Shown piece by piece: positions 9,452 through 60,318 of a stretch of DNA of 64,000 nucleotides; position 1 is the first letter of the stretch; the number at the start of each line of letters is the position of its first letter. The notes below the pieces were generated by a model. That model did not search any database, was not told where the DNA came from, and was given only the letters and a program-made list of their open reading frames with translations. The translations under genes and the position numbers were made by a program. This DNA is from a bacterium (GTDB lineage: Bacteria > Krumholzibacteriota > Krumholzibacteriia > LZORAL124-64-63), in NCBI GenBank assembly GCA_024231905.1, contig JAAEQC010000102.1, forward strand, positions 234,974 to 298,973. The letters run 5' to 3'.

Positions 9452-9464
9452 GCGGGGTGACGTC

Positions 9465-10565
9465 GTGACGTCCCCCACCGATTCTGTGTCCGCCCGTGTG
9501 CCCGGCGTGTGCGTCATCATGGCCGGTGGCCGTGGCACGCGCTTCTGGCCCCTGAGCCGTGCGGCCCTGCCCAAGCAGTTGCTGCCCCTGGCGACCGGGG
9601 CCAGCCTACTGCGGGACACCTACGACCGTGTGGCGCCCCTGGTGGGCCCCGACCGTATCCTCGTGATCACGGGCGCTGCCCTGGCCGACGACGTGCGCCG
9701 CGAGCTACCCGACCTGCCTGCTGCCCACGTCATCGGCGAACCGGTCGGACGCAACACCGCTCCCTGCGCCGTACTCGGTGCGGGCCTGGCCGGCAGGCTG
9801 GCGCCCGGCGAGCCGGTGGCCCTCTTGCCCGCTGACCACCTCATCCCCGAAAGCGAAATCTTCGCCTCCGAACTGGGTGCCGCCCTGGACCGGGCCGCCG
9901 GCCGGGAGACCGTGGTCACCCTGGGTATCCGCCCGGACCGGCCCGAGACGGGCTACGGCTACCTCCTGGCGGGGACCGAGCCCGACGCCGGCGGTTTCCT
10001 GCCGGGGGAGGCCTTCGTGGAGAAGCCGGACCGGGCCACGGCCGAGACCTACCTGGCCGGTGGCCGCCACTACTGGAACGGCGGCATTTTCGTCTGGAAC
10101 GCCTCCTGGTTCGCTGAGCAGGCGGCCGCGCATCTGCCGGCGGTCACCGACCGCATGGCCCCGGCGGTGGCGGCCTTCGGAACCGACGGCTTCCCTGCGG
10201 CGTTGGAGGATGCCTACGCCGACTGCCCGGCCGACTCCCTGGACTACGCGGTCATGGAGAAGCTCGCGGGCTTCGAGGTGCTGCCGGCCGGCTTCGGCTG
10301 GTCGGACCTGGGCAGCTGGGATGCCTGGGGCGATCTGGCGCCGGAGCTCACGGGAGGCAACCGTGGCCGGGCCCCGCTCGTAGCGGTCGACGCCACCGGC
10401 AACGTGGTGCGGACAGACGGAAAACTGGTGGCGCTGGTGGGCGTGGACGACCTGGTCGTGGTCGATACGCCGGACGCGCTGCTGGTCTGCCGCAAGGAGG
10501 ATGCCCAACGCATCAAGGCGGTCATCGAACACCTGGAAAAAGACAAGCGGCAGGATCTGCTCTGA
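9465..10565 (+). CDS. manC: Mannose-1-phosphate guanylyltransferase (GDP-mannose pyrophosphorylase, short form without a PMI domain)
   Basis: VIMAGGRGTRFWPLSRAALPKQLLPL and ...GEPVGRNTAPC... are nucleotidyltransferase motifs typical of ManC. GTG start. Confidence 0.75.
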   Translation: MTSPTDSVSARVPGVCVIMAGGRGTRFWPLSRAALPKQLLPLATGASLLRDTYDRVAPLVGPDRILVITGAALADDVRRELPDLPAAHVIGEPVGRNTAPCAVLGAGLAGRLAPGEPVALLPADHLIPESEIFASELGAALDRAAGRETVVTLGIRPDRPETGYGYLLAGTEPDAGGFLPGEAFVEKPDRATAETYLAGGRHYWNGGIFVWNASWFAEQAAAHLPAVTDRMAPAVAAFGTDGFPAALEDAYADCPADSLDYAVMEKLAGFEVLPAGFGWSDLGSWDAWGDLAPELTGGNRGRAPLVAVDATGNVVRTDGKLVALVGVDDLVVVDTPDALLVCRKEDAQRIKAVIEHLEKDKRQDLL

Positions 10566-14173: not shown

Positions 14174-14890
14174 TCAGCGTTCGTAATAGGGGCTGCGAAA
14201 ATTCCAGGTCATCTCGATCCAACGCCCGGCCCCGGGATCTACTCGCCAGCCGAAAACCCACTGCCCGATGGCTTCCAGAACCGCCTGGCCGAAGACTTCG
14301 CTGCCGGTGGTGTTGGTGATCATGGCTTCCTGCACCTGGCCGTCGGGCCCCACGAAGACCGCCGCCCGCACCACGATGACCGGCTGGCGCCGCTCGAAGT
14401 CGCTGATGCCGAGGGGATACTCCGGTCGCACCTGGTGGAGGATGAACCAATCGGGATTGGACTGCCGGGGCAGGGCGAGTTCCACCTGGGTGCGCTCGGA
14501 GGTTTCGCCCTCGGCGTAGGTCTCCGAGGGATCGGATTCGCGGCTCTCGTCGGCGCGCTCGGGTGTGGGCTCGGTGGCGTCGGGGGATAGGTCCTCGGGC
14601 TCGATCTCCACCTCGGCCGGCGGCGGCGGAGCCTGCAGGGACTGGGGGAGCTGGTGGATCGCGTCGGAGCCGTCCTCGATGGAGATCTCCGGCATGATGC
14701 GCAGCTCGTCCGGGGCGCCGTAGTATTCGAAGCGCTTCTTGATTTCGTTCTCGTCCGGACCGAGCAGCACCAATCCCACCAGGGCCAGGATCGCTACGGC
14801 CACGGCGGCCAGCAGACGCTTGCCCCCGCCGCTCTTGAAGGCGGCCTGGGCCCGGGTGGTGAAGCTGCGGGGGTGCGACGAAGGGTCCAT
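14174..14890 (-). CDS. TonB-family energy transducer-like protein
   Basis: N-terminal TM anchor, Pro/Glu-rich spacer (PPPPAEVEIEPEDLSPD...), and a C-terminal TonB_C-like domain (VIVVRAAVFVGPDGQV...). The start is placed at MDPSS (ATG complement at 14888-14890). Upstream ORF extensions were rejected. Confidence 0.55.
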   Translation of the reverse strand: MDPSSHPRSFTTRAQAAFKSGGGKRLLAAVAVAILALVGLVLLGPDENEIKKRFEYYGAPDELRIMPEISIEDGSDAIHQLPQSLQAPPPPAEVEIEPEDLSPDATEPTPERADESRESDPSETYAEGETSERTQVELALPRQSNPDWFILHQVRPEYPLGISDFERRQPVIVVRAAVFVGPDGQVQEAMITNTTGSEVFGQAVLEAIGQWVFGWRVDPGAGRWIEMTWNFRSPYYER

Positions 14891-14898
14891 GGTTCCGA

Positions 14899-17265
14899 TC
14901 ACCTGCGCCGCGCCGGGCGTTTCCGGATTTCCACGTAGTCCCATGCGCTTCCGCTTCGTTGCAGTCGTCCCATGCTCCAGCCGTGTCCATCGTGGTATTC
15001 GAGGACGTGTCCGTCCCCGCCCAAGGGAAGTCCGGGCTCTCCCCATGAAACTAGGGCTTCGCCGGGACCGGGACCAACCGGCGCCAGGGGATACCAGGGC
15101 AATTGCCCGTCGATGGTGCCCCAGGTGCGGCCAGGATCGCCGCCATTTCGGGCAGTTAGGCGGTCCAGGACCGCGCTCTCGTAGTGCTTCAGGAGATCCG
15201 GAGTGACCGCGCCGACGATGCCGCGTAACAGGGCGCGGGCCTCGGCCGCCTGCCACGCCGGTCCAGCCAGGCGCAGGCCGTCTGACATGGTCGTTGCATG
15301 GGGCAGGTGGACCTCCAGGGCCGGGCAGGACGTGTGGCGCAGGAGATAGGCCCAGGACGGGCCGACGGTGGTCCGCACGCCGGCGGTCCACAGCAGGCTT
15401 AGGGCGCTGTCGGTGGCCGCGGCCCAGGGCTGGCCCATCCGGCTGCCCGGGTGGTGGAAGAGCCGGGCAGTGTCCGGGTGGGCGCTGCGTCCGATGGTGA
15501 GGAAGAAATCGGCTTCCACGCGCTCGGCCAGGGAGATCTTGGCGGTCCCGCCCAGGACTGCGCTCCCGTCCCTGGTCAGGACGGCCGTGGCCCCGAGCCC
15601 CTGGAGCAGGCGGACCAGCTGACGCGCCGTACCCAGATTCACTTCCGCTCCGCGCAGGCCGCCCGGTCCGGTCCGGTCGGCGTCAGCACCGCCGCCCGCC
15701 GGGTCGATCACGAAGGTGAGCCGTTCGAGGGACGGAGCCAGGGCGATCGTGACCGGAGGATCCGTACGGGAACCATCCCCGGCGGGTCCCCGGGCCAGGG
15801 CCTTGCGGCCTGCCGCGGTCCACAGGGCCGTTCCGCCGTCCCGGCGGGGTATGGCCACGCGGCCGGCCGGTGGCGATGGAGGCTGATCGTTCACGAGCCG
15901 GGCCCGCCAGGGCTCCGCCGGGGGCGGCCCGGCCACCGCGGTCCACTGCCAGCCGGCGGGCAGGGCCGCCGTGGCGATCTCGATGCTCACCGCCGTGCTG
16001 TCGGCGGCCAGGAACGCGGGCGCACCGGACAGGTCGTCGGCGGACAGGAGGGCTTCCGGCACGCCGTGGGGGTGCGCGGCCACGGTCGCTCCGCCGGGCC
16101 AGGTGATCCTGCCGGCCGGCGGCGGTGCGCCGGTGGGCGTCAGCCAGCTGACCAGGGCGAGGGATCCGTCCGTGCCGGGACCGTCGAGAGTCACCGTCAT
16201 TTGGAGCACGGTGGCGGCGGCGGGACGTAGCCAGGTGCGCTGTACGGGGGCCGCCCGGCCGGCCAGGTTGCTGCCGCGCAGGACGAGTTCGGCAGCGACG
16301 CCTCCCGCCTGGGGTGGCGCCGTCCACTGGACCGTGCCGCCGTCGAGGGACCGCCGGTGCGCCACCGTCCGGCCATCCAGTTCCAGGGAGAACGAGGCCG
16401 GGTCGCCGGCGGGAGAACCCTCGGCGCCGGCGCCCGGCCGCCGCTCCGGCGCGAATACCCACTTCAGGTCCGATCCGGCAGGCCCCACGGTCAGCGTGTC
16501 CGGCTGGAGCGCCTGCCAGCCCGGATCGCCGGCGGCGAAGTACTCCAGCAGGCCCAGGAAGTAGGCTTCGGCCTCCAGGCGCTGTTTGGCCGCCCGGGAG
16601 AGCAGGTCGGCAACGCCCGGGTGGGAGATCATGGCCGGTTCGCCCAGGACTGCCGGTACGGTGGCGTCCCGCAGCACCCGGAAATTGCCGGGCAGAATCC
16701 GGGCCGGAGCGATCTCCAGGTTCTTGACCAGGTGGCGGTGGATGGCCCGGGCCAGGTCCAGGGACGCTCCGTCCGCGCCCAGGGGGTGGTAGGTCTGGGT
16801 CTCGTTGATGGTGGGGTCGTACGAGGCATTGCTGTTGTGGTGAATCGAAAGAAAGACATCGGGTTGTATGGAGTCGGTGAAGGAAACCCTGAAGGCGAGG
16901 TCGCCGGCCAGAGTCGAGTCGGCCGGGGTCAGGAAGTCCCGATCGGCCGTGCGGGTGAGGTGGACGCCGGCGCCCGCCCACTCGAGCAGGCCGCGCAGGT
17001 GGAGGGCCACGCCCAGGTTCACCTCTGCTTCCGTCAGGCCGTTGGGACCCAGGGCGCCGCGGAAATGGCCGCCGTGGCCGGGATCCAGCACCACGATGCG
17101 CCCCTGGAGGGGGCCGAAGTCGGCGGGGCCGAAGGTCTCGCGCAGAGCTTCGTAACCCGGGGGAGCGCCCGGGGGGAGGTCCGGGGCGGGTGGTCCGCCG
17201 CAGCCGCCGCCCAGGGCGGCGAGGGCCAGGAGGCAGGTGGTGGCGGGGGCCATGCGTCGCGTCAT
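14899..17265 (-). CDS. Lipoprotein N-acetylmuramoyl-L-alanine amidase (Amidase_3) with a second, degenerate Amidase_3-like domain
   Basis: Start MTRRMAPATT... with lipobox LGGGCGG. Domain 1 is intact (RIVVLDPGHGG, FLSIHHNS, LGEPAMISHPG). The C-terminal domain is IDPAGGG / TIGRSAH and lacks the His ligands. The 1545-aa ORF 14899..19536 is truncated here because its upstream portion is antisense to selA. Confidence 0.8.
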   Translation of the reverse strand: MTRRMAPATTCLLALAALGGGCGGPPAPDLPPGAPPGYEALRETFGPADFGPLQGRIVVLDPGHGGHFRGALGPNGLTEAEVNLGVALHLRGLLEWAGAGVHLTRTADRDFLTPADSTLAGDLAFRVSFTDSIQPDVFLSIHHNSNASYDPTINETQTYHPLGADGASLDLARAIHRHLVKNLEIAPARILPGNFRVLRDATVPAVLGEPAMISHPGVADLLSRAAKQRLEAEAYFLGLLEYFAAGDPGWQALQPDTLTVGPAGSDLKWVFAPERRPGAGAEGSPAGDPASFSLELDGRTVAHRRSLDGGTVQWTAPPQAGGVAAELVLRGSNLAGRAAPVQRTWLRPAAATVLQMTVTLDGPGTDGSLALVSWLTPTGAPPPAGRITWPGGATVAAHPHGVPEALLSADDLSGAPAFLAADSTAVSIEIATAALPAGWQWTAVAGPPPAEPWRARLVNDQPPSPPAGRVAIPRRDGGTALWTAAGRKALARGPAGDGSRTDPPVTIALAPSLERLTFVIDPAGGGADADRTGPGGLRGAEVNLGTARQLVRLLQGLGATAVLTRDGSAVLGGTAKISLAERVEADFFLTIGRSAHPDTARLFHHPGSRMGQPWAAATDSALSLLWTAGVRTTVGPSWAYLLRHTSCPALEVHLPHATTMSDGLRLAGPAWQAAEARALLRGIVGAVTPDLLKHYESAVLDRLTARNGGDPGRTWGTIDGQLPWYPLAPVGPGPGEALVSWGEPGLPLGGDGHVLEYHDGHGWSMGRLQRSGSAWDYVEIRKRPARRR

Positions 17266-17541: not shown

Positions 17542-18966
17542 ATGAACGACCCTTCGTCCCGTCTGCGGGAGATCCCGCAGGTCAGCGCCCTGCTCGAGCA
17601 TCCGCGCCTGGCGGTCCTCCTGGAGGGTCGACGGCGTTCCTGGCTGCAGCGCGTGATCCAGGACGCCCTGTCGGATCTGCGCCGCGAATTGCTGGAGGAC
17701 GGCGGTACGGTCCGGAAGCGCGACGCCCTCGTGGACCAGGTCGTCGCCCGGGTGGAGGACTCCTACCGCGAACTCACGAATCCCGCCTGGACCCGGGTCC
17801 TGAACGGTACCGGCGTGGTGGTCCACACGAACCTGGGCCGGGCGAACCTGGCGCCGGACGCCGTGGCGGCCATGGCGGCAGTGGCCGGCCACAACACGGA
17901 CCTGGAGTACGATCTGGCGGCCGGGGCCCGCGGACACCGGGGTCGTCAGGTGGAGGCCAAGGCGGCCCTGTTGGCCGGGGCCGAGGACGCCCTGGTCATC
18001 AACAACAACGCCGCGGCCGTCTGGCTCGCCGTGCGCTTCACGGCCGGCGGCGGGCGGGTGGTCATCTCCCGGGGGGAGATCGTGGCCATCGGCGGTTCGT
18101 TCCGCATGAATGAGATCCTGGCCGAGGCGGGTTGCGAACTGGTGGAGGTCGGCACCACCAACCGCACGAGCCTGGCCGACTACGCCGCCGAGCTGGACGT
18201 GCCGGGCACCGCGGTCATCAAGGTGCATCGGAGCAATTTCTCGGTGGAAGGTTTCACCGAGGACGTGTCCCTGGCGGATCTGGCGCAGCTGTGCAGTGAG
18301 CGCGGCCGCCCGCTGGTGTACGACGCCGGCAGCGGTGCCCTCTTTCCCATGGCGGAACTGGGCTTGCCCGCCGGCGAGTTGACCCTGGACCAGGACGTGG
18401 CCTGCGGTCCGGACCTGGTGACCTGCAGCGGAGACAAGCTGCTCGGGGGGTGCCAGGCGGGTATCATCCTGGGCCGGGCCGACCTCATCGCGGGTTTGCG
18501 GAAGCACCCCATGCGCCGGGCCTTCCGCGTGGACAAGACGACCCTGGCAGCCCTGGACGCGGTGCTGAGCGCCTACCTGCGCGCGGTGGATCGTCCCCCG
18601 GTGCCGACCCTGGAGCAACTGGGCGCCGACCTGGAGTCGCTCCAGGACCGGGCCGAGAAACTGCTGGCCGGACTCGCCCCTCTGGCGCCCGCCGGTTGGC
18701 GGGGGGAAGTCGTGCCCGGGGTCTCGAGCGTGGGCGGCGGCTCCTTCAGCACCGCCGCCATCGAATCGCGCCTGGTCCTGTGGCAGGCGGAGAAGACGGA
18801 TCTCGAGGACGTTCACAGGCGATTGCGGACGGGTGACCCGGCCCTGGTGGGCCGGATGAACAACGATGGTTTGGCGGTGGACGTGCGGACCCTCGGGGAC
18901 GACGAATTGCCGCTGGTGATCGCGGCCTTCAGCGCAGCCTGGACCCAGGCCGCTAGGTCGGCATAA
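17542..18966 (+). CDS. selA: L-seryl-tRNA(Sec) selenium transferase
   Basis: SelA signature including the PLP-lysine region SGDKLLGG.QAGIILGR and VHRSNFSVEGFT. ATG at 17542. Confidence 0.8.
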   Translation: MNDPSSRLREIPQVSALLEHPRLAVLLEGRRRSWLQRVIQDALSDLRRELLEDGGTVRKRDALVDQVVARVEDSYRELTNPAWTRVLNGTGVVVHTNLGRANLAPDAVAAMAAVAGHNTDLEYDLAAGARGHRGRQVEAKAALLAGAEDALVINNNAAAVWLAVRFTAGGGRVVISRGEIVAIGGSFRMNEILAEAGCELVEVGTTNRTSLADYAAELDVPGTAVIKVHRSNFSVEGFTEDVSLADLAQLCSERGRPLVYDAGSGALFPMAELGLPAGELTLDQDVACGPDLVTCSGDKLLGGCQAGIILGRADLIAGLRKHPMRRAFRVDKTTLAALDAVLSAYLRAVDRPPVPTLEQLGADLESLQDRAEKLLAGLAPLAPAGWRGEVVPGVSSVGGGSFSTAAIESRLVLWQAEKTDLEDVHRRLRTGDPALVGRMNNDGLAVDVRTLGDDELPLVIAAFSAAWTQAARSA

Positions 18967-18990: not shown

Positions 18991-20619
18991 ATGAATGATC
19001 AACCCCGTGATCTGCCCGTCTTCATCGCCGGCCTGGAGGCTGCGGAGGCGAGTCTGCAGGGTGGCGAGGGATTCTGGCCCGACGTGGAACGCCTCACCGG
19101 CGGCGACCTTGCCCGTAGCCTGGACGACGCCCTGGCCGGGGCAGCCGCGCCCCGCGTGTGGCTCTTCGTGCACGAGCCCGGCCAGCCCCAACTCGGGGTC
19201 GTGGCGGCCCTGACCTACGCCCGCGTCCTCGGCGGACGGGACCAGGCGGCCATCGTGCTCGACGGGGACGACAGCACCACGGTCCTGTCCCGCTGGTCGG
19301 GGCGGGAGGATGCCGAAGGATGGATCGACATGGTGCGTTACGGCACCTCGGTGCTGACCTCCGGGGTCGCGTTGCCCTTCGCCGGGCGGACCGCCTATCT
19401 GCTGGGCGTAGGCTCCTATGCGCCCACGGACATCACCGCCGGCGAGGTGGACGAGTTCCTGGGACGCCTGCGTCGCCAGGCAGACGACGTGCTCATCGTG
19501 TGCCCGGTGCCGGTGGCCGGCCTGTGGGGCAAGCACGCGGACATCACGCTCATGTGCGTGGACCGCCAGGGGCGGTCCGCGGCGCGGATCGCCGAACTGG
19601 GTGACGAAATGGCTGCCGTCGGCGCGGCGCCGGACGGTCTGGTCGCTTATGGCGAGCCCATGGCAGAGCCTGTGATCGAACCCATGGCCGAGACCGAGGA
19701 CGAGTCGGCCGACGCCCCTGCGGAGGAGACCGTACTACCCCCGGTGGACGACCTCTTCGCCGAAGTGGATGCGGTCGTGGACGAGGAACCGGTGGACGAG
19801 CCGGCGGATGAGCCCGGTAACGAAGCGGAGAGCGAAACGGCCGGTACGGTCGCCGCTGCTCTCGACGCCGCCGAACCGGACGAGCCCTCCGACAGCTTCC
19901 AGGTGGAGGCTCCCACCCGGCGCAGCACCTCGGGCGTGTTCTGGCTCGCGGCCGCCGTCTCGGTGGCGCTTATCGCAGTAGTGTCCATCTACTATTTCAA
20001 GTTCGTGCGCACGGGCGACGACGGCCTGGGCGCTTCGCCTCCGGTGGTGGCCGAGGCGCCTTCGACCGTCGTGCCGGCGGGCGGCCAGGCGGAAGAAACC
20101 GGCGTCGTCCAGGATCAGGGGATCCCTGCGACCGCTGATTCCCAGGCCGTGCTTCCGGTCGGGGATGACCAGGGCACGACGGCGACGGAAGGGGAAACCG
20201 AGGTGCCGGTCCAGGAGACGGACTTGCCGCCGGCGGATCCCACGGCGACCGCGGGCACCGATCCGGCAGCCGGCCCGGCCGACACGACTCCGGAACCGGT
20301 TGCCGATTCCCTGGTGGAGGATCCGGTCTCGTCCGGCGATCCATTCACCGAGCCGGTCGGCCGCGACGGCTGGGCCCTGTGGGTGTACTCGTTCCCCGAG
20401 AGCGAAGACGCCGACCGCCAGGTGTCCGTCCTGCAACGACGGGGCGTCACCGCCACCGTGCGCACGGTCGAGATCGCCGACAAGGGACGCTGGCACCGGA
20501 TCTACATGGGCAACTTCGCATCCCGCGCCGACGCCCGCGACGCCATGCCGGCCCTGCTTGAGCGCCTGCGGACCGACTGGGCCCAGCCCGTGCGGTTCTA
20601 CGCCGCGACCGACGACTGA
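18991..20619 (+). CDS. SPOR-domain membrane protein with an N-terminal cytoplasmic domain and a long acidic/Pro-rich linker (cell-division-associated)
   Basis: One TM segment (VFWLAAAVSVALIAVVSIYYF). C-terminal SPOR-like domain (WALWVYSFPESEDADRQVSVLQRRGVTATVRTVEI...RIYMGNFASRADA). The N-terminal roughly 200 aa resembles a P-loop-less ParA/MinD-like fold. Confidence 0.7.
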   Translation: MNDQPRDLPVFIAGLEAAEASLQGGEGFWPDVERLTGGDLARSLDDALAGAAAPRVWLFVHEPGQPQLGVVAALTYARVLGGRDQAAIVLDGDDSTTVLSRWSGREDAEGWIDMVRYGTSVLTSGVALPFAGRTAYLLGVGSYAPTDITAGEVDEFLGRLRRQADDVLIVCPVPVAGLWGKHADITLMCVDRQGRSAARIAELGDEMAAVGAAPDGLVAYGEPMAEPVIEPMAETEDESADAPAEETVLPPVDDLFAEVDAVVDEEPVDEPADEPGNEAESETAGTVAAALDAAEPDEPSDSFQVEAPTRRSTSGVFWLAAAVSVALIAVVSIYYFKFVRTGDDGLGASPPVVAEAPSTVVPAGGQAEETGVVQDQGIPATADSQAVLPVGDDQGTTATEGETEVPVQETDLPPADPTATAGTDPAAGPADTTPEPVADSLVEDPVSSGDPFTEPVGRDGWALWVYSFPESEDADRQVSVLQRRGVTATVRTVEIADKGRWHRIYMGNFASRADARDAMPALLERLRTDWAQPVRFYAATDD

Positions 20620-20690: not shown

Positions 20691-23600
20691 TTGCGTCTGA
20701 AATCCATTGAACTGCAGGGCTTCAAGTCCTTCGTCGAGCGCACGCGCCTCGATTTCGACCACGGCATCACCGCCATTCTCGGCCCCAACGGCTGCGGCAA
20801 GTCCAACGTGGTGGACGCCGTGCGCTGGGTCCTGGGCGAGCAGTCGGCCAAGCAGCTCCGCGGCGGCAAGATGGACGACATCATCTTCAAGGGTTCGACC
20901 AAGCGCCGCCCCGTGGGCATGGCCGAGGTCACCCTGGTCTTCGACAACGAGGACCGGGGGCTGCCCATCGAGTTCTCCGAGGTGGCCATCAAGCGACGGG
21001 TCACCCGCGACGGGGGCAGCGACTACTTCCTCAACGGCTCCCCCTGCCGGCTCAAGGATCTGCGCGACCTCTTCTACGACAGCGGCGTGAACAACACGTC
21101 CTACTCGATCATCGAGGAATCGATGATCAAGCAGATCCTCAACGAGAACAACACGGAGCTGCGCAACCTCCTGGAAGAGGGCTCGGGCATCACCAAGTAC
21201 AAGGCCCGGCGCAAGGAGACCCAGCGCAAGCTCGACCGCACCCGCGCCGACCTGACGCGTCTCTACGACATCGTCGAGGAGATCGGGCGGGAGGTGCGCT
21301 CCCTTCAGCGCCAGGTGGGCAAGGCCCGCCGGCACCAGAAGCTCTTCAAGGAGATCCGTGCCCTGGACCTGCTCCTGGCCGGCCGCAGACGCGGCGAACT
21401 GGACCGGGAAGAAACGGCTGCCCGCGAACGCCTCGAGGAATTCCGCACCCAGGCCGAGGCCGGGGTGGGCGAGCTTGCCGAGTTGCAGGCCAATACCGCC
21501 GCCGCCCGTCCCCAGGTGGACGAGCGCGAGGCCGAGAGACGTCAGCTGGAGGAAGCGCTGCAGGCCTTCGAGGAGGAGCTTCAGGAGACCGAGCGCCAGG
21601 TCCTCCTGCTGCAGACGCGCAGCGAGGAACATGCCCGGCGGGTTCAGGACAACGAGAGCTCGGCCGAGGAAACTCTCACGCGACAGCAGGAGCTGGAAGG
21701 CCGCATCCGGCGCCTGGACGAGCATCTGCTTCAGGTGGGCCAGGAAAAGGACGCGGCCGAGCGGCAGTTGGCCGAGCGCAGCGAGAGTCTGCGGGTCCTG
21801 GAGGACCGTCTCGAGCACGACCGGGCCGCCCTGGACGAGGCCACGCGCCTGAACCTGGAAGTCATCGAGAGCGACGCCTCCAGCCGCAGCCAGCTCCGGG
21901 AGCTGCAGGTCAAGCAGGAGAATCGCCGCGAACGCATCTCGATCCTGGAGACCGAACGCGAAGAGTTGCTGCAAGCCGGTCGCGAAGCCGACGAGCAGGC
22001 GACCACCCTGCGCGCCGAACGCGAGGAGTCCCTGGTCCGGCGGCGCGGCATGCTGGAAGCCCTGGCCGGCCACGAGCGCGAGGAGACCGAGCTGGAGGCG
22101 TCGTCGGTGGCGCTCCAGGACGATCTGGCCGGCGCCCGGGCCAAGGCCGAAGCGGCCCGTTCCACCCGCGACCTGCTGCGGGGCCTGCAGGAGGATTACG
22201 AAGGCTACGGCCAGGGTCCACGCGAGATGCTCAAGCGCCATGGCGGCGAGGACCGGATTACCGGCGGCGTGGTCGACCAGATCAACGTTCCCGCCGCGGA
22301 CCGGGTCGCCCTGGAGGCCCTGCTGGCGGACCTGCTGGACGCGGTGGTGGTGGACGGCCCCGATACGGCGTTGCAACTGGTGGACGAGCTCCGCGGCGAA
22401 CGGCTGGGCCAGGCGAGTTTCCTCTGTGGCGATGGTTTCGCCGCCGCCGGCGAGATTCCCGATCTGGCGGCGACCGGCGGCCGGCCGGCGGACGAAGTCA
22501 TCACCGGGCCGGGCGCCCGGTTGCCGGCCCTGCGCCGCCTGCTGGTGGGTACGGTCATCTTCGAAGACGACACAGCCGCGGTGGCCGCCGCCCGCGGCTG
22601 GAACGGCGCCGGCGTGTTGACCTGTGTCAGCCGCGGTGGCCTGCTCGTACGCAGCGACGGCACCATGCGCGGCGGCGCGGCCGACGCCGGAGAGAATGGC
22701 GACAGCGGCCTGCTGGGCCGCAAGGAACAGCTCGAACGGCTGGAGCAGGAGATCTCCGGCCTGGAGCGGCGGGAGACCACCGCCCAGGAGAAGCTGGTGG
22801 CCAACCGTGACCGGCGTGAGACCGTACGCGAGGCCCTCATCGCCGGCCGCGGCGACCTGTCCACCCTGGACGAGGAACTGGGCCGCCAGGAGGTCGTCCT
22901 GGCCCGGGCCGAGCACACCCGCGGCACCGCTGCCCAGCGGGCCGGCCAGATGGAGGAGGAGCGCACGCGCCTGACGGCCGAGGTCCAGACCCTGGCGGTC
23001 GAGGAGGAGACCCTCACGGACGTGCTCTCGGCCAGCGGCCGAGAACGGCAGGACACGACCACCCGCCGGGACGACCTGCGCAAGCAGGTCCAGGAGGCGG
23101 AACTGGTCCGGGACGAGGCGCGGGCCGGCGTGGAGGAACTGCGCCTGACCGAGCAGAAGAAACAGAGCGAGCAGCGGGAGGGCGACGCGGCACTCCAGCA
23201 CCTGCGCGACAACGTGGCCGAGCTCTTCGCCCGCCGGGAACGGCTGGCCGAGGAGAGCGAGATGGCCCGGGAGTCCATCACGGTGCTCGAGGAGGAGCTC
23301 GCGGCCAAGCGCGAGATCCTCGGCAAGGCCATGGAGGAGCGGACCCGGCGCCGGCAGGTGGTGCACGCGGCGGCCGAGGGCATTCACACCCTCCACGACC
23401 AGATGAACGGCTGGAACGATCGCATCCAGCTCATCGAGAAGCAGCGCGGCGGCTTCCGCGACCAGGCCCACGAGATGGAGACCCTGCTGGCGACCCTGGA
23501 CGTGCGCCGTAACAACCTGGAGGAACGGGTCGAGGAGCAGCACAAGGGCAGCTTCCAGGACCTGATCGACTCGGTGAAGGAAGAGGACCTGCCCCGGGAA

Positions 23601-24539
23601 CTGGAGATGGACGAAGGCGTCTTCCAGACCGACCAGGCGGAGAACCTGCTCGAGCTGAAACGCGGCAAGCTGGGCTCCCTCGGTCCCATCAATCACCTGG
23701 CCCTCGAGGAATTCGAGACCAAGAAGGAGCGCCTGGATTTCCTGGAGCAGCAGCGGGACGACGTGGAGAAGGCCCGGGACGACCTGGAAAAGGCCATCAC
23801 CGAGATCAACCGCACCGCCCGCAAGCGCTTCGTCCAGACCTTCGAGGAGGTCAGGAGGAACTACGTGGCGGTCTTCCAGACCCTCTTCAAGGGCGGACGC
23901 GCGGACCTGGAACTCATCCGCACCGACGACCCCCTGGAGAGCCACATCCACGTAAAGGCCCAGCCCACGGGCAAGGTCGTCGACCACGTGTCGCTGCTGT
24001 CGGGCGGCGAGCGCTGCCTGACGGCCCTGTCGCTGCTGTTCGCCGTGTACCTGGTGAAGCCCTCACCCTTCTGCATGCTGGACGAGGCCGACGCGCCCCT
24101 GGACGACGCCAACATCCAGCGCTTCGTCAACATGCTCCGGGAGTTCAGCCGTAACACCCAGTTCCTGGTCATCACCCACAACAAGCTGACCATGGAGACG
24201 GCGAATCACCTGTACGGCGTGACCATGATGGAGCCCGGGTGCTCGTCCATCGTGTCGGTGAGCTTCCACGACGTGGCCGAAACCCAGTCCGATACGGAAC
24301 TGGCCGGGGCCATCGCAGCCCGGCGCCGGAAGATCGACAAGCGGGAGGAGACCCGCGCTCTGGACCTGGCCCTGGAGGTGAAGGAGGAGGTCGTCGAGAC
24401 GGTGGACGCCGACGACCCAGCTGCCGCCGATGACCCCGCCGCTGATGACCCCGCCGACGGTCAGGACGCCGATGCGGACGACACCAGCGCCGACGACGCC
24501 GACCGGGCCACCGCCGGCGAACTGGAGGCCAGCGAATGA
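20691..24539 (+). CDS. smc: Chromosome segregation protein SMC
   Basis: N-terminal Walker A (GPNGCGKSNVVDAVRWVLGEQS), long coiled coils, C-terminal signature LSGGERCLTALSLLFA and Walker B CMLDEADAPLDD. TTG start with a GGAAGG RBS. Acidic D/A-rich tail. Confidence 0.9.
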   Translation: MRLKSIELQGFKSFVERTRLDFDHGITAILGPNGCGKSNVVDAVRWVLGEQSAKQLRGGKMDDIIFKGSTKRRPVGMAEVTLVFDNEDRGLPIEFSEVAIKRRVTRDGGSDYFLNGSPCRLKDLRDLFYDSGVNNTSYSIIEESMIKQILNENNTELRNLLEEGSGITKYKARRKETQRKLDRTRADLTRLYDIVEEIGREVRSLQRQVGKARRHQKLFKEIRALDLLLAGRRRGELDREETAARERLEEFRTQAEAGVGELAELQANTAAARPQVDEREAERRQLEEALQAFEEELQETERQVLLLQTRSEEHARRVQDNESSAEETLTRQQELEGRIRRLDEHLLQVGQEKDAAERQLAERSESLRVLEDRLEHDRAALDEATRLNLEVIESDASSRSQLRELQVKQENRRERISILETEREELLQAGREADEQATTLRAEREESLVRRRGMLEALAGHEREETELEASSVALQDDLAGARAKAEAARSTRDLLRGLQEDYEGYGQGPREMLKRHGGEDRITGGVVDQINVPAADRVALEALLADLLDAVVVDGPDTALQLVDELRGERLGQASFLCGDGFAAAGEIPDLAATGGRPADEVITGPGARLPALRRLLVGTVIFEDDTAAVAAARGWNGAGVLTCVSRGGLLVRSDGTMRGGAADAGENGDSGLLGRKEQLERLEQEISGLERRETTAQEKLVANRDRRETVREALIAGRGDLSTLDEELGRQEVVLARAEHTRGTAAQRAGQMEEERTRLTAEVQTLAVEEETLTDVLSASGRERQDTTTRRDDLRKQVQEAELVRDEARAGVEELRLTEQKKQSEQREGDAALQHLRDNVAELFARRERLAEESEMARESITVLEEELAAKREILGKAMEERTRRRQVVHAAAEGIHTLHDQMNGWNDRIQLIEKQRGGFRDQAHEMETLLATLDVRRNNLEERVEEQHKGSFQDLIDSVKEEDLPRELEMDEGVFQTDQAENLLELKRGKLGSLGPINHLALEEFETKKERLDFLEQQRDDVEKARDDLEKAITEINRTARKRFVQTFEEVRRNYVAVFQTLFKGGRADLELIRTDDPLESHIHVKAQPTGKVVDHVSLLSGGERCLTALSLLFAVYLVKPSPFCMLDEADAPLDDANIQRFVNMLREFSRNTQFLVITHNKLTMETANHLYGVTMMEPGCSSIVSVSFHDVAETQSDTELAGAIAARRRKIDKREETRALDLALEVKEEVVETVDADDPAAADDPAADDPADGQDADADDTSADDADRATAGELEASE

Positions 24540-25576
24540 TCCGCGGCGCCCTGGCGAATCTGCGGCGCGGCCTGAGCCGGACGCGCGAGAGCGTGGTCGG
24601 CAGCCTGCGCGGCATCCTGGGCCGGCGCGTGCGTCTGGACCAGGACACTCTCGACCGCATCGAGGAACTCCTCATCTCCGCGGACATGGGCGTCCAATCG
24701 GCGGTGGCCATTACCGGCAGCATCGAGAAGCGGCTCAAGGAGGAGGGCGGCGAGGCCTCCCTCGAGTCGGTCCTCGAGGTCATCCGCGGCGACGTCACCG
24801 AAATCCTCACCAGCGCCACGCCCCGGGTCCGGCCCCTGACCTGGGACGAGGAGGACGGCGGCCGGAAGAAGAAAAAGAAGAAGAAGGGGAAGCCTGCTCC
24901 GGAGCCGGAGACCGCCGAGGCGACAACCGCCGGTCCCCGGGTGATCTTCGTGGTGGGGGTCAACGGGACGGGCAAGACCACGACCATCGCCAAGCTCGCG
25001 CACCTGTTCAAGGCCGAGGGCGAACAGGTCCTCCTGGCCGCCGGCGACACCTTCCGCGCCGCGGCCGTGGCCCAGCTCAGCGTGTGGGCCGAGCGCGTCG
25101 AAGTGGACTGCGTGCAGCAGGGCCAGGGCGCCGACCCGGCGGCGGTGGTCTTCGACGCCCTGCAGGCGGCGGCGGCCCGCGAGTCCGACGTGGTCATCGT
25201 CGATACGGCCGGCCGCCTCCACACCAGATCCAACCTCATGGACGAACTGGGCAAGGTGGCGCGGGTGATCCGCAAGCAGACCGGGCGCGACCCGGAGACC
25301 TTGTTGGTGGTGGACGCCAACACGGGCCAGAACGGCCTGGCCCAGGCCAAGGTCTTCGCTGAGACCATCCCCGTGGAGGGCCTCGTGCTCACCAAACTCG
25401 ACGGCACGGCCAAGGGCGGCATCGTCGTGGCCATCGCTGAAACCCTGGGCCTGCCCGTGCGCTACGTGGGCACGGGCGAACAGGTGGAGGACCTGGCAAT
25501 CTTCGATCCCCTGACCTTCGTGGACGCCCTCTTCGCCGATTGGACCGATGGTGCCGAAGCGCAAGAGGGGGACTAG
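24536..25576 (+). CDS. ftsY: Signal recognition particle receptor FtsY
   Basis: SRP-GTPase motifs: GVNGTGKTTTIAKLA, DTAGR and TKLDGTAKGG. ATG overlaps the smc stop (ATGA). Contains a KKKKKKK insertion. Confidence 0.9.
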   Translation: MIRGALANLRRGLSRTRESVVGSLRGILGRRVRLDQDTLDRIEELLISADMGVQSAVAITGSIEKRLKEEGGEASLESVLEVIRGDVTEILTSATPRVRPLTWDEEDGGRKKKKKKKGKPAPEPETAEATTAGPRVIFVVGVNGTGKTTTIAKLAHLFKAEGEQVLLAAGDTFRAAAVAQLSVWAERVEVDCVQQGQGADPAAVVFDALQAAAARESDVVIVDTAGRLHTRSNLMDELGKVARVIRKQTGRDPETLLVVDANTGQNGLAQAKVFAETIPVEGLVLTKLDGTAKGGIVVAIAETLGLPVRYVGTGEQVEDLAIFDPLTFVDALFADWTDGAEAQEGD

Positions 25577-26933
25577 GCGCCCCGCAGCCCGACCGGGCCC
25601 GCGGCGGGGTTCCACGCGACCCCGTAATCGCCGCGGCCGCCGCCGCGCTGCCGCCGACCGGGTGCAGGCCCTCCTGTCCAGTTCCCAGGGTCGGTCCGAC
25701 GACTCCCGCGACCACCGACGTCCCGAACAGCGCTGGGCCGGTTTCCGCTCCCTCGACGTGCAACGGGACCGCGAACTCTTCGCCGGCCTGGTGGCCCTGG
25801 ACTTCGACTACCTCCTGGGACTGCGCTTCGCCGCCGGTCCGCGCACCCTCATGGACCTGCTGCCCCAGTCGGTGGTGGGCCGGGCCCAGAACGGCCACGG
25901 CTGGTTCAGCGACGAGTACGGCACGGCCCTCCGCTTTCCCGACGCCACCTTCGAGCGCGTGCTGTCGGTCCTGGAGAAATCCGATCCCAATCTGCGCCCC
26001 GCCGCGGTCCGCAAGCGCCGCACGTCCATGCTCCACAACTTCGGCGCCTGGCTGTTCGAGCGTCTGGAGGCGCCGGAACTGGACCTGGTCTTTGCCGACG
26101 GTCCCCTGCTGGGCGTGGACTTCCTGGCCGACCGGACCTGGGACACGCGGGCCTTCCTGAAGGGCATGGTGCTGGCTGGCCACATGGACGACTGGTCCTT
26201 CCGCGCCACCTCCATGCTCCAGTACAAGCGAACCTTCGGCGGCTTCCCCTACCAGATCGGCGGGGGGGAGATCATGGTGGTGGACCCGGATCGCCTGGCG
26301 CTTCTCGGCCTGGGGGACACGGGGCAGTCGGTCTTCACGGACGACCACCTGCGGCAACTGCGCGACTTGGGCGCCATCGTCGATGACCCCGCCGGCGAAC
26401 ACCGCTTCCCGGACCGGGACCAGGCCTTCTTCCGTCGCCGCCTGGGCGACGGCGTGTGCGACGACATGGCCATGGTCCTGGTGGGGGCGCGCCACGGTCT
26501 GGACGCCATGATGGGCGCCTTCGTCATGGACGCGGCCGACACCTACGACAAGTACCTGCTGGAGATGACCTGGGGCGGCTACGACGGCTGGCTGGCCGGC
26601 GGTATCCAGTCGCGGATCCTCGAGCGGGAGGGCAGCCCCCTGGTGGGCGACGAGGAGATTCTCGATCTCATCCACTTCGCGGCCAAGCGCAACGACCCGC
26701 CCGTTCCCTTCAGTTCGTCCCACCGGCGGCTCATCCAGTACGAAAAGAACGCGACCACGCCCACGTTCCTGAACCACTGGCGTTTCCTGCAGGGGGACCC
26801 CCTGGACGACATCAAGCTCGGTTTCAACCGCGTGCCCGCCCGGGATTTCTACACAGCGGCGCGGGACCGGCTCGCGGCGGTGGGTATCAACGTACCCGTC
26901 CCGACCTACCTGGCGCTCCGCCGCGGGCGTTGA
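25548..26933 (+). CDS. Hypothetical protein with an Arg/Lys-rich N-terminus (start uncertain)
   Basis: 461-codon ORF with coding-like codon usage and no motifs I recognise. ATG 25548 overlaps the ftsY 3' end by 29 nt; in-frame GTGs at 25656 and 25746 are alternative starts. The 3' end is convergent with the histidine kinase gene. Confidence 0.45.
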   Translation: MVPKRKRGTRRPAARPGPRRGSTRPRNRRGRRRAAADRVQALLSSSQGRSDDSRDHRRPEQRWAGFRSLDVQRDRELFAGLVALDFDYLLGLRFAAGPRTLMDLLPQSVVGRAQNGHGWFSDEYGTALRFPDATFERVLSVLEKSDPNLRPAAVRKRRTSMLHNFGAWLFERLEAPELDLVFADGPLLGVDFLADRTWDTRAFLKGMVLAGHMDDWSFRATSMLQYKRTFGGFPYQIGGGEIMVVDPDRLALLGLGDTGQSVFTDDHLRQLRDLGAIVDDPAGEHRFPDRDQAFFRRRLGDGVCDDMAMVLVGARHGLDAMMGAFVMDAADTYDKYLLEMTWGGYDGWLAGGIQSRILEREGSPLVGDEEILDLIHFAAKRNDPPVPFSSSHRRLIQYEKNATTPTFLNHWRFLQGDPLDDIKLGFNRVPARDFYTAARDRLAAVGINVPVPTYLALRRGR

Positions 26934-26939
26934 ATCTTC

Positions 26940-29900
26940 TTAGCTGAGGACATGATCCAGGGTGGCCAGGAGCTGGGCGCCGGTGAAGGGCTTCCGGACC
27001 GCCGCGGCGAAGCCGTGGGCGCCGGGATCGCTCAGGTGCGGTCCGTCGCTGTAGCCGCTGATCACGACGGCGCGCACGTCCGGATCGATGGTGCGCAGGT
27101 GGGCCAGGGTGTCGGCACCGCCCATGCCGCCGGGCACGATCAGGTCCAGGAGCACCGCGTCGAAGGGTTCGCCGCGGTCGCGGGCGCCGGTGAAGGACTC
27201 GACGGCGGTCCGGCCGTCCGCCACGCATTCGCACACATAGCCCCGGTCCACGAGCACACGTTCGATGATCTCGCGTACCCCGGCCTCGTCGTCGAGGACG
27301 AGGATTCGTCCCGACCGGCGGCGGGGCGGACGCGGCGCCGCCGCCACGGGCACGGCCTGGCGTTCGCTGGCCGGGAGCAGGACCGTGAAACGGGCGCCGC
27401 CGCCGGGCGCCTCGTCCACAGTCAGGCGTCCATCGTGACGGTGGATCACCGAATGGGCCACGGCCAGCCCCAAACCCGTGCGGGCGTCCTTGGTGCTGTA
27501 GTAGGGTTCGAAAACGCGCTCCCGGTCCTCCACGGGTACGCCGGGGCCTTCGTCGCCGATCTCGATGGCCAGATCGTCGGCTACGGGTGTTTGCCGGTGG
27601 GTGACGCGCACGGTGACCAAACCGCCGCGGGGCATGGCCTGGCGCGCATTGATCAGGATGTTGCTCAGGACCTGTTCGATCTGTCCTACATCGATCTCCG
27701 TGTGGGGCAGGTCCGCCGGCAGGTGCAGGTCCGCCGAGACGTTGGTACCGCTGAGCACGAGATTCGTAACGCTGCGCACCAGGGCACCCAGGTCGGATAG
27801 TTCCTTCCGGGGGGCGCCGCCGCGGGCGAAAGTGAGGAGTTGGTCCGTGAGGTTGCGCGCCCGGACGGAAGCCTCGTTGATGGCCACCAGGTAGTGCTCG
27901 GCGTCCGGACCGTCACGGTCGTCGGCGGCGAGGGAGGCATTGCCCATGATGATCATCAGCAGGTTGTTGAAGTCGTGGGCGATTCCGCCGGCGAGCAGGC
28001 CCAGGGACTCGAGACGCTGGGCGCGGCGTCTTTCCTCGGCCAGTTCGTTGCGGTCGGTCACGTCGTCGAACACCAGGAAACGAGCGCCGGTCGTCATACC
28101 AGGCGCTTCGTAGGTGGCGGTCCGGACTTCCAGGCAGCGGCGGGCCCCGTTGCCGTCGGCGGACCGGTCGATGACGAGTTCGTGGGGTTGGGGGGAGTCG
28201 TGCTCCGCCGGAACGAATTCGGGGAGGATATCCGGGAGCGAGCGCCCTTCGAGCCGGGTCCGGCCCGTGCCCAGGACCCGTGATGCGCCGGGATTCGCCT
28301 GCAGGATGCACCCGTTGCCGTCCACGACGAGCACGCCGTCGGTGATGCCGTCGAGGACCGCCGTCAAGCGGGCGGACTCGGTCCGGTACCGCAACTCGGA
28401 GGCGCGCAACTCCGCCGTCCGGTCGGCCACCTCGCGGCCGAGCCGTTCGGCGAAACGGCGGTTGGCCACGGCGAAGACGAGCAGGGCCAGCAGGGCGAGC
28501 ACAGCCAGGACCACGCCGGCGACGAACCAGGGGGTCCGCCACACCGGTGGGCGGAGGCGCAGGTCGGGTGAGACCAACACTTCGCTCACGTTGCCCTCCA
28601 CGTCCACCGCCTGCAGGTGCAGCCGGTGCAGGCCCGGCGGCAGGTTGGTGTAGCGGAGGGAATGGTCCGGGATGATCCGGGCCGGGGTCCAAGCGGACTG
28701 CAGGGGTTCGAACCGGGTGCGGAAGCGCAGGTGTTGCTCGTCCCGGAAGGCGTAGGCGGTGAAGCGGAAGACGACCTCGTGGGTGTTGGCGGGCAACTCC
28801 AGGAGGCCGGCGGGGGGGACCTCGCGGCCGTCCACCTCGACGCTCGTGAAACGGACAGGCAGGTCCACGGTCGGCTGCGCGTCGTGGAGGGGATCGAAGA
28901 CCGACACGCCGCGGTCAGTGCCGATCCAGATCCGGCCCGAGGCATCCTCGGCCAGGGCGTCCCGGTTGGTCTCGTTGCCGGCCAAACCGTCCGTGGTCCG
29001 CCAGGCGCGCAGCTTGCCGTCCTGCCAGCAGCGCACGCCGCGATCGGTGCCGAACCAGACACGGCCTGCCCGGTCGGCCAGCATGCCGAAGATCATGTCG
29101 TTGATGCGGGGGGCCGTCTCTGCGACCAGGCTGTCCCCCTCGATCCGGGCCAGTCCTCCGGCGGTTCCCACCCACACGCGGTCGTCCCGTTCGAGGACCG
29201 CGTAGGCCTGGCCGAGACGGGAGGACGACGGACCGCCGTACCATTCCTGCTCGTCGCCGCGTATGCGCAGCACCCCCAACCGGGGGGTGGTCACCCAGAT
29301 GCCTCCCCCGACTGCCGGTTCGATGCGGCGTACCGAGATTTTCTCGACCACGAGTTCGAAGGTGGCCGTGCCGGCCACGATGGCGTCGCGATCGACCCGG
29401 AAAAGGCCCCGCACCGTGCCCACCCAGAGTTTGCCCGCGTCGTCGGCGTGGAGGGCGAAGATGGGTAAGGGGGGAGTGCTCGGATTACCGTGCCAGGTGA
29501 GGCGGCCGTTGTTCTGGTAGCGGGCGATGCCCACGCGCTCGGCGGCCACCCAGTACCCGCCCTCCGGGTCAGGAGCGATATCCATGGTCCGGCACCGTCC
29601 GGTGCCGACATCCGTGTCGATAACCTGCTGGACTTCGTCGCCCACGAAGCGGGTCAGTCCATGGGGGTGGCCCAGCAGAACTCCGCCGTCCGGCAGGGGT
29701 TGCACCGCGCAGACCTCGTCGTCGGGGAAGCCGCTGTCGGCGTCGAAGTTGGTGAAACGGCGGGACACGATCTTGGTGACCCCGCGTAGGCCGGCGATCC
29801 ACACCAGCCCCTCACGATCGACGAGGATGTCGTAGGCGCCGGGGGCGGCGAAGTCCCGGGTGTCCAGGATTTCCCAGCCACGCCGGGGGTGCCGGTAGCG

Positions 29901-30773: not shown

Positions 30774-30846
30774 TATGCGTGACCGCGGGCCGTGCGGCAA
30801 GACGGTTTCGCGGACCGGCAAGCCGGAATCGGAAGGATGCAAGATC

Positions 30847-31188
30847 ATGTCCAGGATGACGATCCCCGAGTTCCTGAAAGCGAATCCCGAGATCGACCTG
30901 CCCCTGCCGGGCGTGACCGGCTGGCTGCTCCAGGGTGAACGGCAGCAAGCGGTGGTCGTGGAATTCAACGAGACGGTGGAGGTGGCCGAGCACGATCACG
31001 CCGACCAATGGGAGATTGCGTTGTCCGGCCAGGTGGAATTGCATCGGGCGGGCGGCACCGAGGTCTACGAGGCGGGCGAGAACTTCCACATCCCGGCTGG
31101 ACAGCCCCACGGCGCCACGGTCCACGCCGGCTACAAGGCGCTCATCTTCTTTGACGAACCGGATCGATATCAGCCCAAGAAGGGTTGA
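30847..31188 (+). CDS. Cupin domain protein
   Basis: Small beta-barrel cupin motif (EHDHADQWEIALSGQVEL...GENFHIPAGQPHG). GGAAGGA RBS before ATG 30847. Confidence 0.6.
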   Translation: MSRMTIPEFLKANPEIDLPLPGVTGWLLQGERQQAVVVEFNETVEVAEHDHADQWEIALSGQVELHRAGGTEVYEAGENFHIPAGQPHGATVHAGYKALIFFDEPDRYQPKKG

Positions 31189-59802: not shown

Positions 59803-60318
59803 ATGCACCGCCAAGACGCCAACGGCTGGACCATGGGTCCGGCGAACGTCCAGCGGGTAGGGGCCGCCATGGCCCACCGCCGCGGATTGCGCCACAGCCG
59901 CATCCTGCGCTGGCTGCTGGGAGGCAGCGCCCTGGCTTCGTCGCTGGCCGTGGCCCTGGTGGTGACCGTGCAGGTGACGGATCTGCGCGAGTCCGTGGCC
60001 ATCCTCACCGACCGCCAGGCCTGCCTGGCCGCTCGCAATGCGGGGCTCCAGGCCGACTGGGCCTGCTCCACTCGGCCAGAGGTGGTGCGTGAGCGCGCCT
60101 CGCGCGAGCTGGGCCTGATCGTACCCGCCGAACCGGAATTCGTACTCGTGGCCCGCCGTAGCGTCCCGGAAGCCGGACCGCGCCTGTGGCGGCGGGTCCT
60201 GGAAGGGTTAGGCGGCGGCACGTCGGCCCATGCGGCCACGGCGGTAGCTACGCCCCTGCGCACCGGCATGATCTCCGTCCTGCCCCTGGCCGCTCCGCGG
60301 GCCGGGAGCGGATCGTGA
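59803..60318 (+). CDS. ftsL: Cell division protein FtsL-like (single TM)
   Basis: Position between rsmH and ftsI, one TM helix (LASSLAVALVVTVQV), GGAGGGA RBS. There is essentially no sequence conservation, as is usual for FtsL. Confidence 0.55.
   Translation: MHRQDANGWTMGPANVQRVGAAMAHRRGLRHSRILRWLLGGSALASSLAVALVVTVQVTDLRESVAILTDRQACLAARNAGLQADWACSTRPEVVRERASRELGLIVPAEPEFVLVARRSVPEAGPRLWRRVLEGLGGGTSAHAATAVATPLRTGMISVLPLAAPRAGSGS

Follow-up and report, generated by a model that had tools for sequence, protein, structure and literature searches.

A Krumholzibacteriota membrane protein that joins a catalytically degenerate BY-kinase-like domain to a SPOR domain

Results

Architecture of the gene X product

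A single gene at 18991–20619 on the forward strand of contig JAAEQC010000102.1 (assembly GCA_024231905.1), here called gene X, was examined within a 64,000-nucleotide stretch of a Krumholzibacteriota genome that we refer to as the window. Gene X is an ATG-to-TGA open reading frame (ORF) of 542 amino acids (aa) plus stop. Its product is ordered, from the N-terminus, as a putative BY-pseudokinase domain, an acidic linker, one transmembrane (TM) helix, a Pro/Thr/Asp-rich linker and a SPOR domain. The window DNA is 70% GC and contains many spurious ORFs on both strands, but gene X is a real coding gene: the GC content at third codon positions (GC3) is 0.84, the same as in other genes of the window, the GC values at the three codon positions (0.76/0.52/0.84) carry the signature of the window's real genes, and homologues share the start Met. 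Its GC3, conservation and synteny rule out a spurious high-GC ORF.

A full-length AlphaFold2 (AF2) model built on an 86-sequence alignment has a mean predicted local distance difference test score (pLDDT) of 79 and contains three confident folded segments. It replaces an earlier model from seven sequences, which had a pLDDT of 69.8 and left residues 103–136 unmodelled. The two strings cited in an earlier reading of this DNA, made from the letters and their translations (the sequence-only reading), are indeed present in the protein, QAAIVLDGDDSTT at residues 85–97 and DDVLIVCPVPVAGLWGKHADITLMCVD at residues 165–191. We are highly confident of the structural and evolutionary description of X that is given below.

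The N-terminal domain is a relative of BY-kinases

BY-kinases are P-loop tyrosine autokinases of the SIMIBI class, related to ParA and MinD, and include Wzc, Etk, CapB, BceF and VpsO. The N-terminal domain of X (19003–19656; residues about 5–222), which is predicted to be cytoplasmic, had tentatively been read from its sequence as a ParA/MinD-like fold, with structure prediction suggested as a check. When modelled on the 86 sequences, residues ~1–220 do adopt a confident nucleotide-binding fold of the ParA/MinD superfamily (pLDDT 94–98 across residues 10–225). Foldseek's top 50 PDB matches to the model are without exception BY-kinases (Wzc, BceF, Etk, CapAB, VpsO).

Scans of the whole protein with Pfam and NCBIfam gave no match to this domain even at E <= 10, and PDB searches with the single X sequence or with a seven-sequence profile returned noise only (antibody light chains; CapA1B1 at E = 1.2). 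Since direct profile searches were silent, the family was assembled first. No more than six partial relatives, one of them labelled Candidatus Krumholzibacteria, came from a word-indexed search, and these were made into a profile (A2) that was scored exhaustively against 1.84 billion representative proteins. This gave 114 matches, of which about 75 were strong (430–670 aa, with the domain N-terminal). The same search reaches genuine BY-kinases, among them P0108 (E = 1.2e-4) and P0111; P0108 is a Wzc-like protein of 714 aa with two TM helices, the Walker A motif SALPDEGKTT, the Walker B motif VILDTPP and a Tyr-rich tail. Direct alignment of A2 with four BY-kinase-type sequences in hhalign covered 167 columns at 98.8% probability (E = 7.7e-17). 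Homology to PDB entries became significant only once a profile of a more divergent, SPOR-linked clade (A5) was used: the E values were 8.9e-21 for BceF, 3.9e-17 for Wzc, 2e-14 for VpsO, about 1e-14 for CapAB and 5e-12 for Etk, against 6e-9 for the best MinD and 1e-4 or worse for ParA and FleN. Scored against a 5.8-billion database, A5 found proteins of the 'capsular exopolysaccharide synthesis family' at 1e-14 to 1e-12.

The N-terminal domain is thus closest to BY-kinases, within the ParA/MinD superfamily. The fold proposed earlier stands at the superfamily level, but the nearest relatives, by Foldseek, hhalign and profile comparison alike, are BY-kinases instead of MinD or ParA. An active MinD or ParA was considered as an identity for X and rejected, because there is no Walker A motif and BY-kinases are closer.

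Catalytic residues are missing across the family

The register of motifs between X and true BY-kinases was taken from the hhalign columns, and motifs were counted over 84 aligned family members (68 in a core clade and 16 in a distant clade). The absence of a Walker A motif, already remarked on from the sequence, is complete: GK[ST] occurs nowhere in X, and at the P-loop site it is found in none of the 84. The Walker A remnant (19162–19200; residues 58–70; LFVHEPGQPQLGV) aligns to SALPDEGKTT, with HEPGQPQLG where a true BY-kinase has PDEGKTT, and both the Lys and the Ser/Thr are absent. The site is acidic, with H/D-E-P-G as the core-clade pattern and T-D-x-E-E-D-P as that of the distant clade, and is followed by a semi-conserved Arg at position 69 (27/68 core, 12/16 distant).

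Walker A' is partly preserved. Its remnant, AIVLDGDDS (19249–19275; residues 87–95), gives VLDGDDS in X against VVDCDDR in a true BY-kinase, keeping the DxD and losing the Arg. Within the core clade D91 is present in 66 and D93 in 67 of the 68 members, and most distant-clade members have both; the Arg position (95) is Ser in X, variable in the core clade and Arg in 9 of the 16 distant-clade members. At Walker B (DVLIVCPVP; 19486–19512; residues 166–174), X has LIVCPVP in place of VILDTPP (within MVILDTPP); the Pro is kept, while the catalytic Asp has become Cys in X and Ala in most relatives, and no Asp occurs at positions 170/171 across the 84 members. A C-terminal Tyr cluster is also lacking: in X, Y220 is followed by a Tyr-free acidic linker, and across the family the 45 aa that follow the domain contain 0.24 Tyr on average, versus 5 in the last 25 aa of P0108. 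Since all 84 members lack the Lys/Thr of Walker A, the Asp of Walker B and the Tyr cluster, the domain classifies, as far as sequence can tell, as a BY pseudokinase by the criteria applied to EcpK and HfsB. The most conserved stretch of the domain is specific to this family (L-x-R-W-x-G-R-x-E-x-E-G-W-I-D-x-x-R-Y-G-x-S ... G-V-G-S-x-x-P, plus W57 and W179), which argues for an interaction surface that has been kept rather than for a decaying relic.

Membrane anchoring and the SPOR domain

Beyond the N-terminal domain lies a disordered linker (19657–19926; residues 223–312; pLDDT 43–63), predicted to be cytoplasmic, that ends in the juxtamembrane sequence RRSTSG. It had been described as long, acidic and Pro-rich, and its composition agrees (34% D+E and 13% P over residues 223–305, with 0% K+R); family-wide, the linker has a median length of 72 aa and a mean D+E content of 21%. 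The single TM helix (19927–20007; residues about 313–339) is seen both as a hydropathy peak (residues 315–333; Kyte-Doolittle 2.45) and as an AF2 helix (residues 315–339; pLDDT about 90), and almost all full-length relatives in the family have a single TM helix at the equivalent site. A juxtamembrane motif, S-S-P-x-F-R or similar (RRSTSGVF in X; about 19915–19935, residues 309–315), recurs in the core and distant clades, in relatives that span P0088–P0117. The second linker (20008–20355; residues 340–455; pLDDT about 46–57), predicted to be disordered and periplasmic, is rich in Pro, Thr, Asp and Glu (19% acidic and 14% Pro over residues 337–455), and its family consensus contains no conserved motif and nothing like the E-domain motif of FtsN. 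We consider X a bitopic protein of the inner membrane, probably with its N-terminus inside and its C-terminus outside, since a P-loop-type fold without a signal peptide precedes the helix, SPOR domains act on peptidoglycan, and there is a modest positive-inside bias.

The SPOR domain (20356–20604; residues 456–538) has the expected beta-alpha-beta-beta-alpha-beta fold in the AF2 model, with strand 461–468, helix 471–483, strands 488–495 and 499–509, helix 512–526 and strand 532–535 (pLDDT 94–98). Its identification in the sequence-only reading is borne out by the curated Pfam profile PF05036, which matches residues 459–522 at 37.8 bits against a gathering cut-off of 21 (E = 2.5e-9). In FtsN, residues S254, W283 and R285 matter for septal localisation, and their mutation reduces it (PMC6895207). 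Their equivalents, with the correspondence between FtsN and X inferred from reading the VQCGSF / GWNRV motifs, are kept in the family: S467 in 82, W501 in 71 and R503 in 82 of the 84 members. Glycan binding by this domain is likely, judging from these sequence features. X was also considered as an FtsN orthologue and rejected, as the ftsN equivalog model TIGR02223 reaches only 11.9 bits against its cut-off of 107.65 and covers the SPOR part only.

A fixed place between selA and smc

At 50% identity the X family falls into about 100 clusters. Of the 86 aligned full-length sequences, 83 have a SPOR domain, the exceptions including the BY-kinase-type outgroups P0097 and P0108, which have Wzz/GNVR. 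Scanning GTDB at one genome per species gave 25 X loci; all of their genomes that are named at phylum level are Candidatus Krumholzibacteriota or Krumholzibacteriia, and a few carry obviously automatic labels. This confirms the earlier suggestion that X is lineage-specific. Public labels of its relatives conflict ('hypothetical', 'RodZ', 'DedD', 'Mrp family ATPase', 'non-specific protein-tyrosine kinase'). The RodZ label was rejected for X because the protein has no HTH and no Pfam support for such an assignment.

In the window, gene X follows selA (17542–18966, forward strand; Pfam SelA, E = 7e-113) after a gap of 25 nt and is itself followed by smc (20691–24539) and ftsY (24536–25576), both on the forward strand and both assigned with Pfam. 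Divergent from selA is the gene of a 788-aa lipoprotein (14899–17265, reverse strand) with two Amidase_3 stretches (Pfam, E = 6.9e-43) and the lipobox LAALGGGC. No terminator-like sites separate selA, X, smc and ftsY on the window's forward strand, and a scan for promoters and terminators gave no informative sites between these genes.

Across the family, selA lies directly upstream of X in 32 of 32 loci, and every locus in which the flanks are present keeps the order selA-X-smc-ftsY, metagenome locus L001 among them. Every locus of the genome scan with enough flank shows the divergent amidase gene followed by selA, X, smc and ftsY, even where X has fallen to 34% identity. The amidase occupies its slot in 22 of the 25 genome-scan loci and is absent from it in the distant-clade loci L027, L029 and L030. 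The genomic context claimed earlier, near an amidase and upstream of smc-ftsY, thus holds for the window, with the qualifications that the amidase gene is on the opposite strand, that selA lies between, and that the amidase is a neighbour in the Krumholzibacteriia subclade only. In the distant clade, to which assemblies GCA_041484665.1 and GCA_024276995.1 belong, X shares about 29–31% identity with its counterpart in the window, SMC 40% and FtsY 51%, with the architecture of X unchanged; selA and X overlap there by 4 nt, and a longer gene order is shared, ManC, PpiC, DUF2914, BFN, hexapeptide, LppC-like, TonB_C (reverse strand), SelA, X, SMC, FtsY, RibD. selA also precedes X in the two most divergent members that were examined; smc-ftsY comes after X in L032, whereas the truncated 674-aa product encoded after X in L031 has no recorded Pfam entry. 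X diverges faster than its neighbours but is never lost from its slot.

The orthologue in L001, a long-read metagenome contig (ENA ERZ21831251; 8001–9713), is frameshifted, with an out-of-frame, Arg-rich tail after residue about 280 and its SPOR part in another frame (9453–9713). As the smc and L9 genes of that contig are also split, we attribute these breaks to indel errors of the assembly and not to pseudogenes.

Other genes of the window

HMM scans of the six-frame translation of the 64-kb window revealed no second SPOR or N-terminal-domain gene and no BY-kinase or Wzz-like gene. Around the conserved cluster, a 461-aa ORF (25548–26933, forward strand; coding-like GC3 of 0.89; no Pfam match) overlaps the end of ftsY. 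It is kept 3' of ftsY in the Krumholzibacteriia loci L001, L005 and L016 at 43–62% identity, and ribD stands there in the distant clade. The N-terminal region of FtsY contains an eight-lysine run, GGRKKKKKKKKGKP, that may substitute for a membrane-binding A-domain. On the other side of the cluster, an ORF at 14177–14935 (reverse strand), between a periplasmic-binding-protein gene and the amidase gene, is a positional match to the distant-clade TonB_C gene and has no Pfam match at E <= 1e-4.

Further away, a penicillin-binding protein (PBP) gene at 60162–62423 (forward strand) encodes two PASTA stretches after a transpeptidase domain and may start a dcw-like cluster; PASTA domains are more familiar from PBP2x and PknB-type proteins of Gram-positive bacteria. 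Two genes unrelated to X encode Reg_prop proteins: one, at 26943–30995 (reverse strand), specifies a hybrid histidine kinase of 1351 aa that combines Reg_prop propeller repeats with PAS, HisKA, HATPase and receiver domains, and the other lies at 51340–53787 (forward strand).

Discussion

Altogether, we favour, with moderate confidence, a reading in which the SPOR domain directs X to the division site and its cytoplasmic part serves there as a scaffold that needs no nucleotide. The SPOR domain would bind septal peptidoglycan, most likely the 'denuded' glycan strands left by amidases, and so concentrate X at the site of division; in Krumholzibacteriia this ligand might be made by the neighbouring double-amidase lipoprotein. 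On the inner face of the membrane, the flexible acidic tether of about 90 aa would hold a BY-kinase-fold domain that neither binds nucleotide nor transfers phosphate. This domain would present its conserved surface (the DxD, RW-GR-E-EGWID-RYG-S and GVGS-P) and act as a scaffold, oligomerising and/or binding a cytoplasmic partner. In this way the state of the septal wall could be coupled to a cytoplasmic process, either the divisome or, given the invariant position beside smc, chromosome clearance or segregation. The scaffold role is proposed by analogy with EcpK and HfsB, and both septal enrichment and the designation 'division protein' are suggested by the SPOR domain and the overall architecture.

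Several observations weigh against this reading. A strand-1 Gln that is highly conserved among SPOR domains (FtsN Q251, RlpA Q270) contacts MurNAc/GlcNAc (PMC6895207). At this position the X family has His in 69, Trp in 10 and Gln in only 3 of 84 members (alignment A3), X itself carrying W464 (codon 20380–20382); with the glycan-contacting residue replaced, affinity for the ligand or specificity could differ. The positive-inside bias around the TM helix is modest (2.9 vs 1.8 K+R). The BY-kinase oligomerisation motif EX2RX2R is found in 4 of 84 members, which makes ring formation uncertain, and this is a weak test, as the BY-kinase-type P0108 and P0097 also fail the strict pattern. Finally, selA, smc and ftsY are not a divisome cluster, the dcw-like genes being about 40 kb away, and history, not function, may account for this neighbourhood of X: selA is not obviously linked, and its adjacency shows that operon membership here need not mean shared function.

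The same observations can be assembled differently. The variant SPOR domain might bind another feature of peptidoglycan, or a glycan found all over the cell, and X would then be a general accessory of envelope or peptidoglycan synthesis that modulates synthases or tethers the membrane, much as DamX or DedD. The family-wide change of the SPOR Gln to His or Trp speaks for this, as do the location of X outside the dcw/fts cluster and the name DedD given to one relative by JGI. DamX and DedD are themselves proposed to stimulate class A PBPs, and their roles exceed septal targeting (PMC7642682). We nevertheless think it rather unlikely, because three of four other FtsN localisation residues are conserved, because the TIGR02223 score falls far below its cut-off and the periplasmic linker has no conserved E-domain-like motif, and because such a role leaves a large and highly conserved cytoplasmic domain of BY-kinase fold unexplained. 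That domain could point elsewhere, to polysaccharide export, with X as an EcpK/HfsB-like pseudokinase that scaffolds a PCP-2/Wzx-Wzy machine and a SPOR domain that anchors the machine to the wall. All characterised BY-kinase-fold proteins, pseudokinases included, work with polysaccharide co-polymerases (PMC12004946), a ManC-type nucleotidyl transferase is encoded about 9 kb upstream, and glycosyltransferases occur elsewhere in the window. The invariant neighbours are nonetheless selA, smc and ftsY, and none of the annotated loci has a Wzz, Wza, Wzx or Wzy gene within 8 kb. No Wzz/GNVR region occurs in cis in the family, the outgroups P0097 and P0108 alone having one, and the window lacks any BY-kinase, Wzz-like or second SPOR gene. 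We judge this role quite improbable.

Whether the N-terminal domain might after all be an active NTPase or kinase with a non-canonical phosphate-binding loop turns on what its motifs retain. The Walker A' DxD, which binds Mg and is catalytic in BY-kinases, is almost invariant, and the Arg at position 69 after the degenerate loop is semi-conserved. The loop, however, has no Lys-Ser/Thr and should repel phosphate by its acidity, Walker B has no Asp, and these losses are uniform over 84 members, which makes retained activity highly improbable. The SPOR-targeted scaffold could also be a dedicated trans-envelope coupler of Krumholzibacteriota and relatives: its SPOR domain would sense the amidase-processed septum, its N-terminal domain would form a Wzc-like ring or bind a ParB/SMC-type partner, and closure of the septum would thereby be timed with SMC-dependent chromosome clearance. 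This more specific version is speculative and we give it little credence. For the favoured scaffold reading itself, the fixed smc adjacency, together with the precedent of CpsD and ParB, makes a segregation link worth testing.

The combination of a SPOR domain with a BY pseudokinase appears undescribed, since full-text literature searches for SPOR with BY-kinase or tyrosine kinase returned no paper that combines them; both domains and the concept of a BY pseudokinase are already known. To our knowledge, nearly all known proteins of BY-kinase fold regulate polysaccharide co-polymerases, and the recognition of catalytically dead ones (EcpK, HfsB) is recent. X would thus add a new, lineage-wide architecture in which an apparently dead BY-kinase fold lies outside polysaccharide export. 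We propose that members of the family be annotated as 'SPOR-domain protein with N-terminal BY-pseudokinase domain'. If the role suggested here is correct, a BY-kinase scaffold has been recruited beyond polysaccharide export, and X is a candidate lineage-specific divisome component of Krumholzibacteriota, a phylum for which we know of no cultured representatives and no FtsN-type activator. Were the trans-envelope coupler to hold as well, the BY-kinase fold would have a new role in cell-cycle control that does not depend on phosphorylation. X is a candidate factor of the divisome or of segregation that can be tested, in a phylum not yet cultured.

In its layout, X resembles FtsN, DamX and DedD of E. 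coli and RgsS of S. meliloti, in which one TM helix and a long, disordered periplasmic linker likewise connect a cytoplasmic N-terminus to a SPOR domain at the C-terminus. The cytoplasmic part of these proteins is a short peptide, whereas that of X is a folded, P-loop-NTPase-type domain of 220 aa. With FtsN in particular, X shares the SPOR equivalents of S254, W283 and R285; it differs in having no E-domain motif and in the key SPOR Gln, which is His or Trp in the X family. MinD and ParA, with the pseudo-ATPase scaffolds of their family, are clearly more distant from X than BY-kinases are, by structure as well as sequence, and X lacks both their deviant Walker A motif, KGGxxGK[ST], and a C-terminal amphipathic membrane-targeting helix. 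A functional link between a division-site protein of BY-kinase fold and chromosome segregation does exist in Streptococcus pneumoniae, where CpsD is connected with ParB (PMC4574921). CpsD, however, is an active autokinase of the capsule machinery, and the possible segregation link of X comes solely from gene adjacency.

The comparison with BY-kinases themselves is one of shared fold and altered setting. X is without their Walker A Lys/Thr, Walker B Asp and C-terminal Tyr cluster; its domain is N-terminal and precedes the TM helix, whereas in BY-kinases it follows TM2; and X has a SPOR domain instead of the Wzz/GNVR periplasmic domain and lies outside a polysaccharide locus. EcpK of Myxococcus xanthus and HfsB of Caulobacter crescentus have the BY fold and have lost the Walker motifs and the Tyr tail, and they are proposed to be phosphorylation-independent scaffolds (PMC12004946). 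By these published criteria X is likened to them, as it too combines a BY fold with loss of the Walker motifs and the Tyr tail. Those proteins are soluble, stand-alone and bind the cytoplasmic base of a PCP-2 co-polymerase, encoded in exopolysaccharide (EPS) or holdfast loci, whereas in X a TM helix covalently links the domain to a SPOR domain, and the gene sits between selA and smc.

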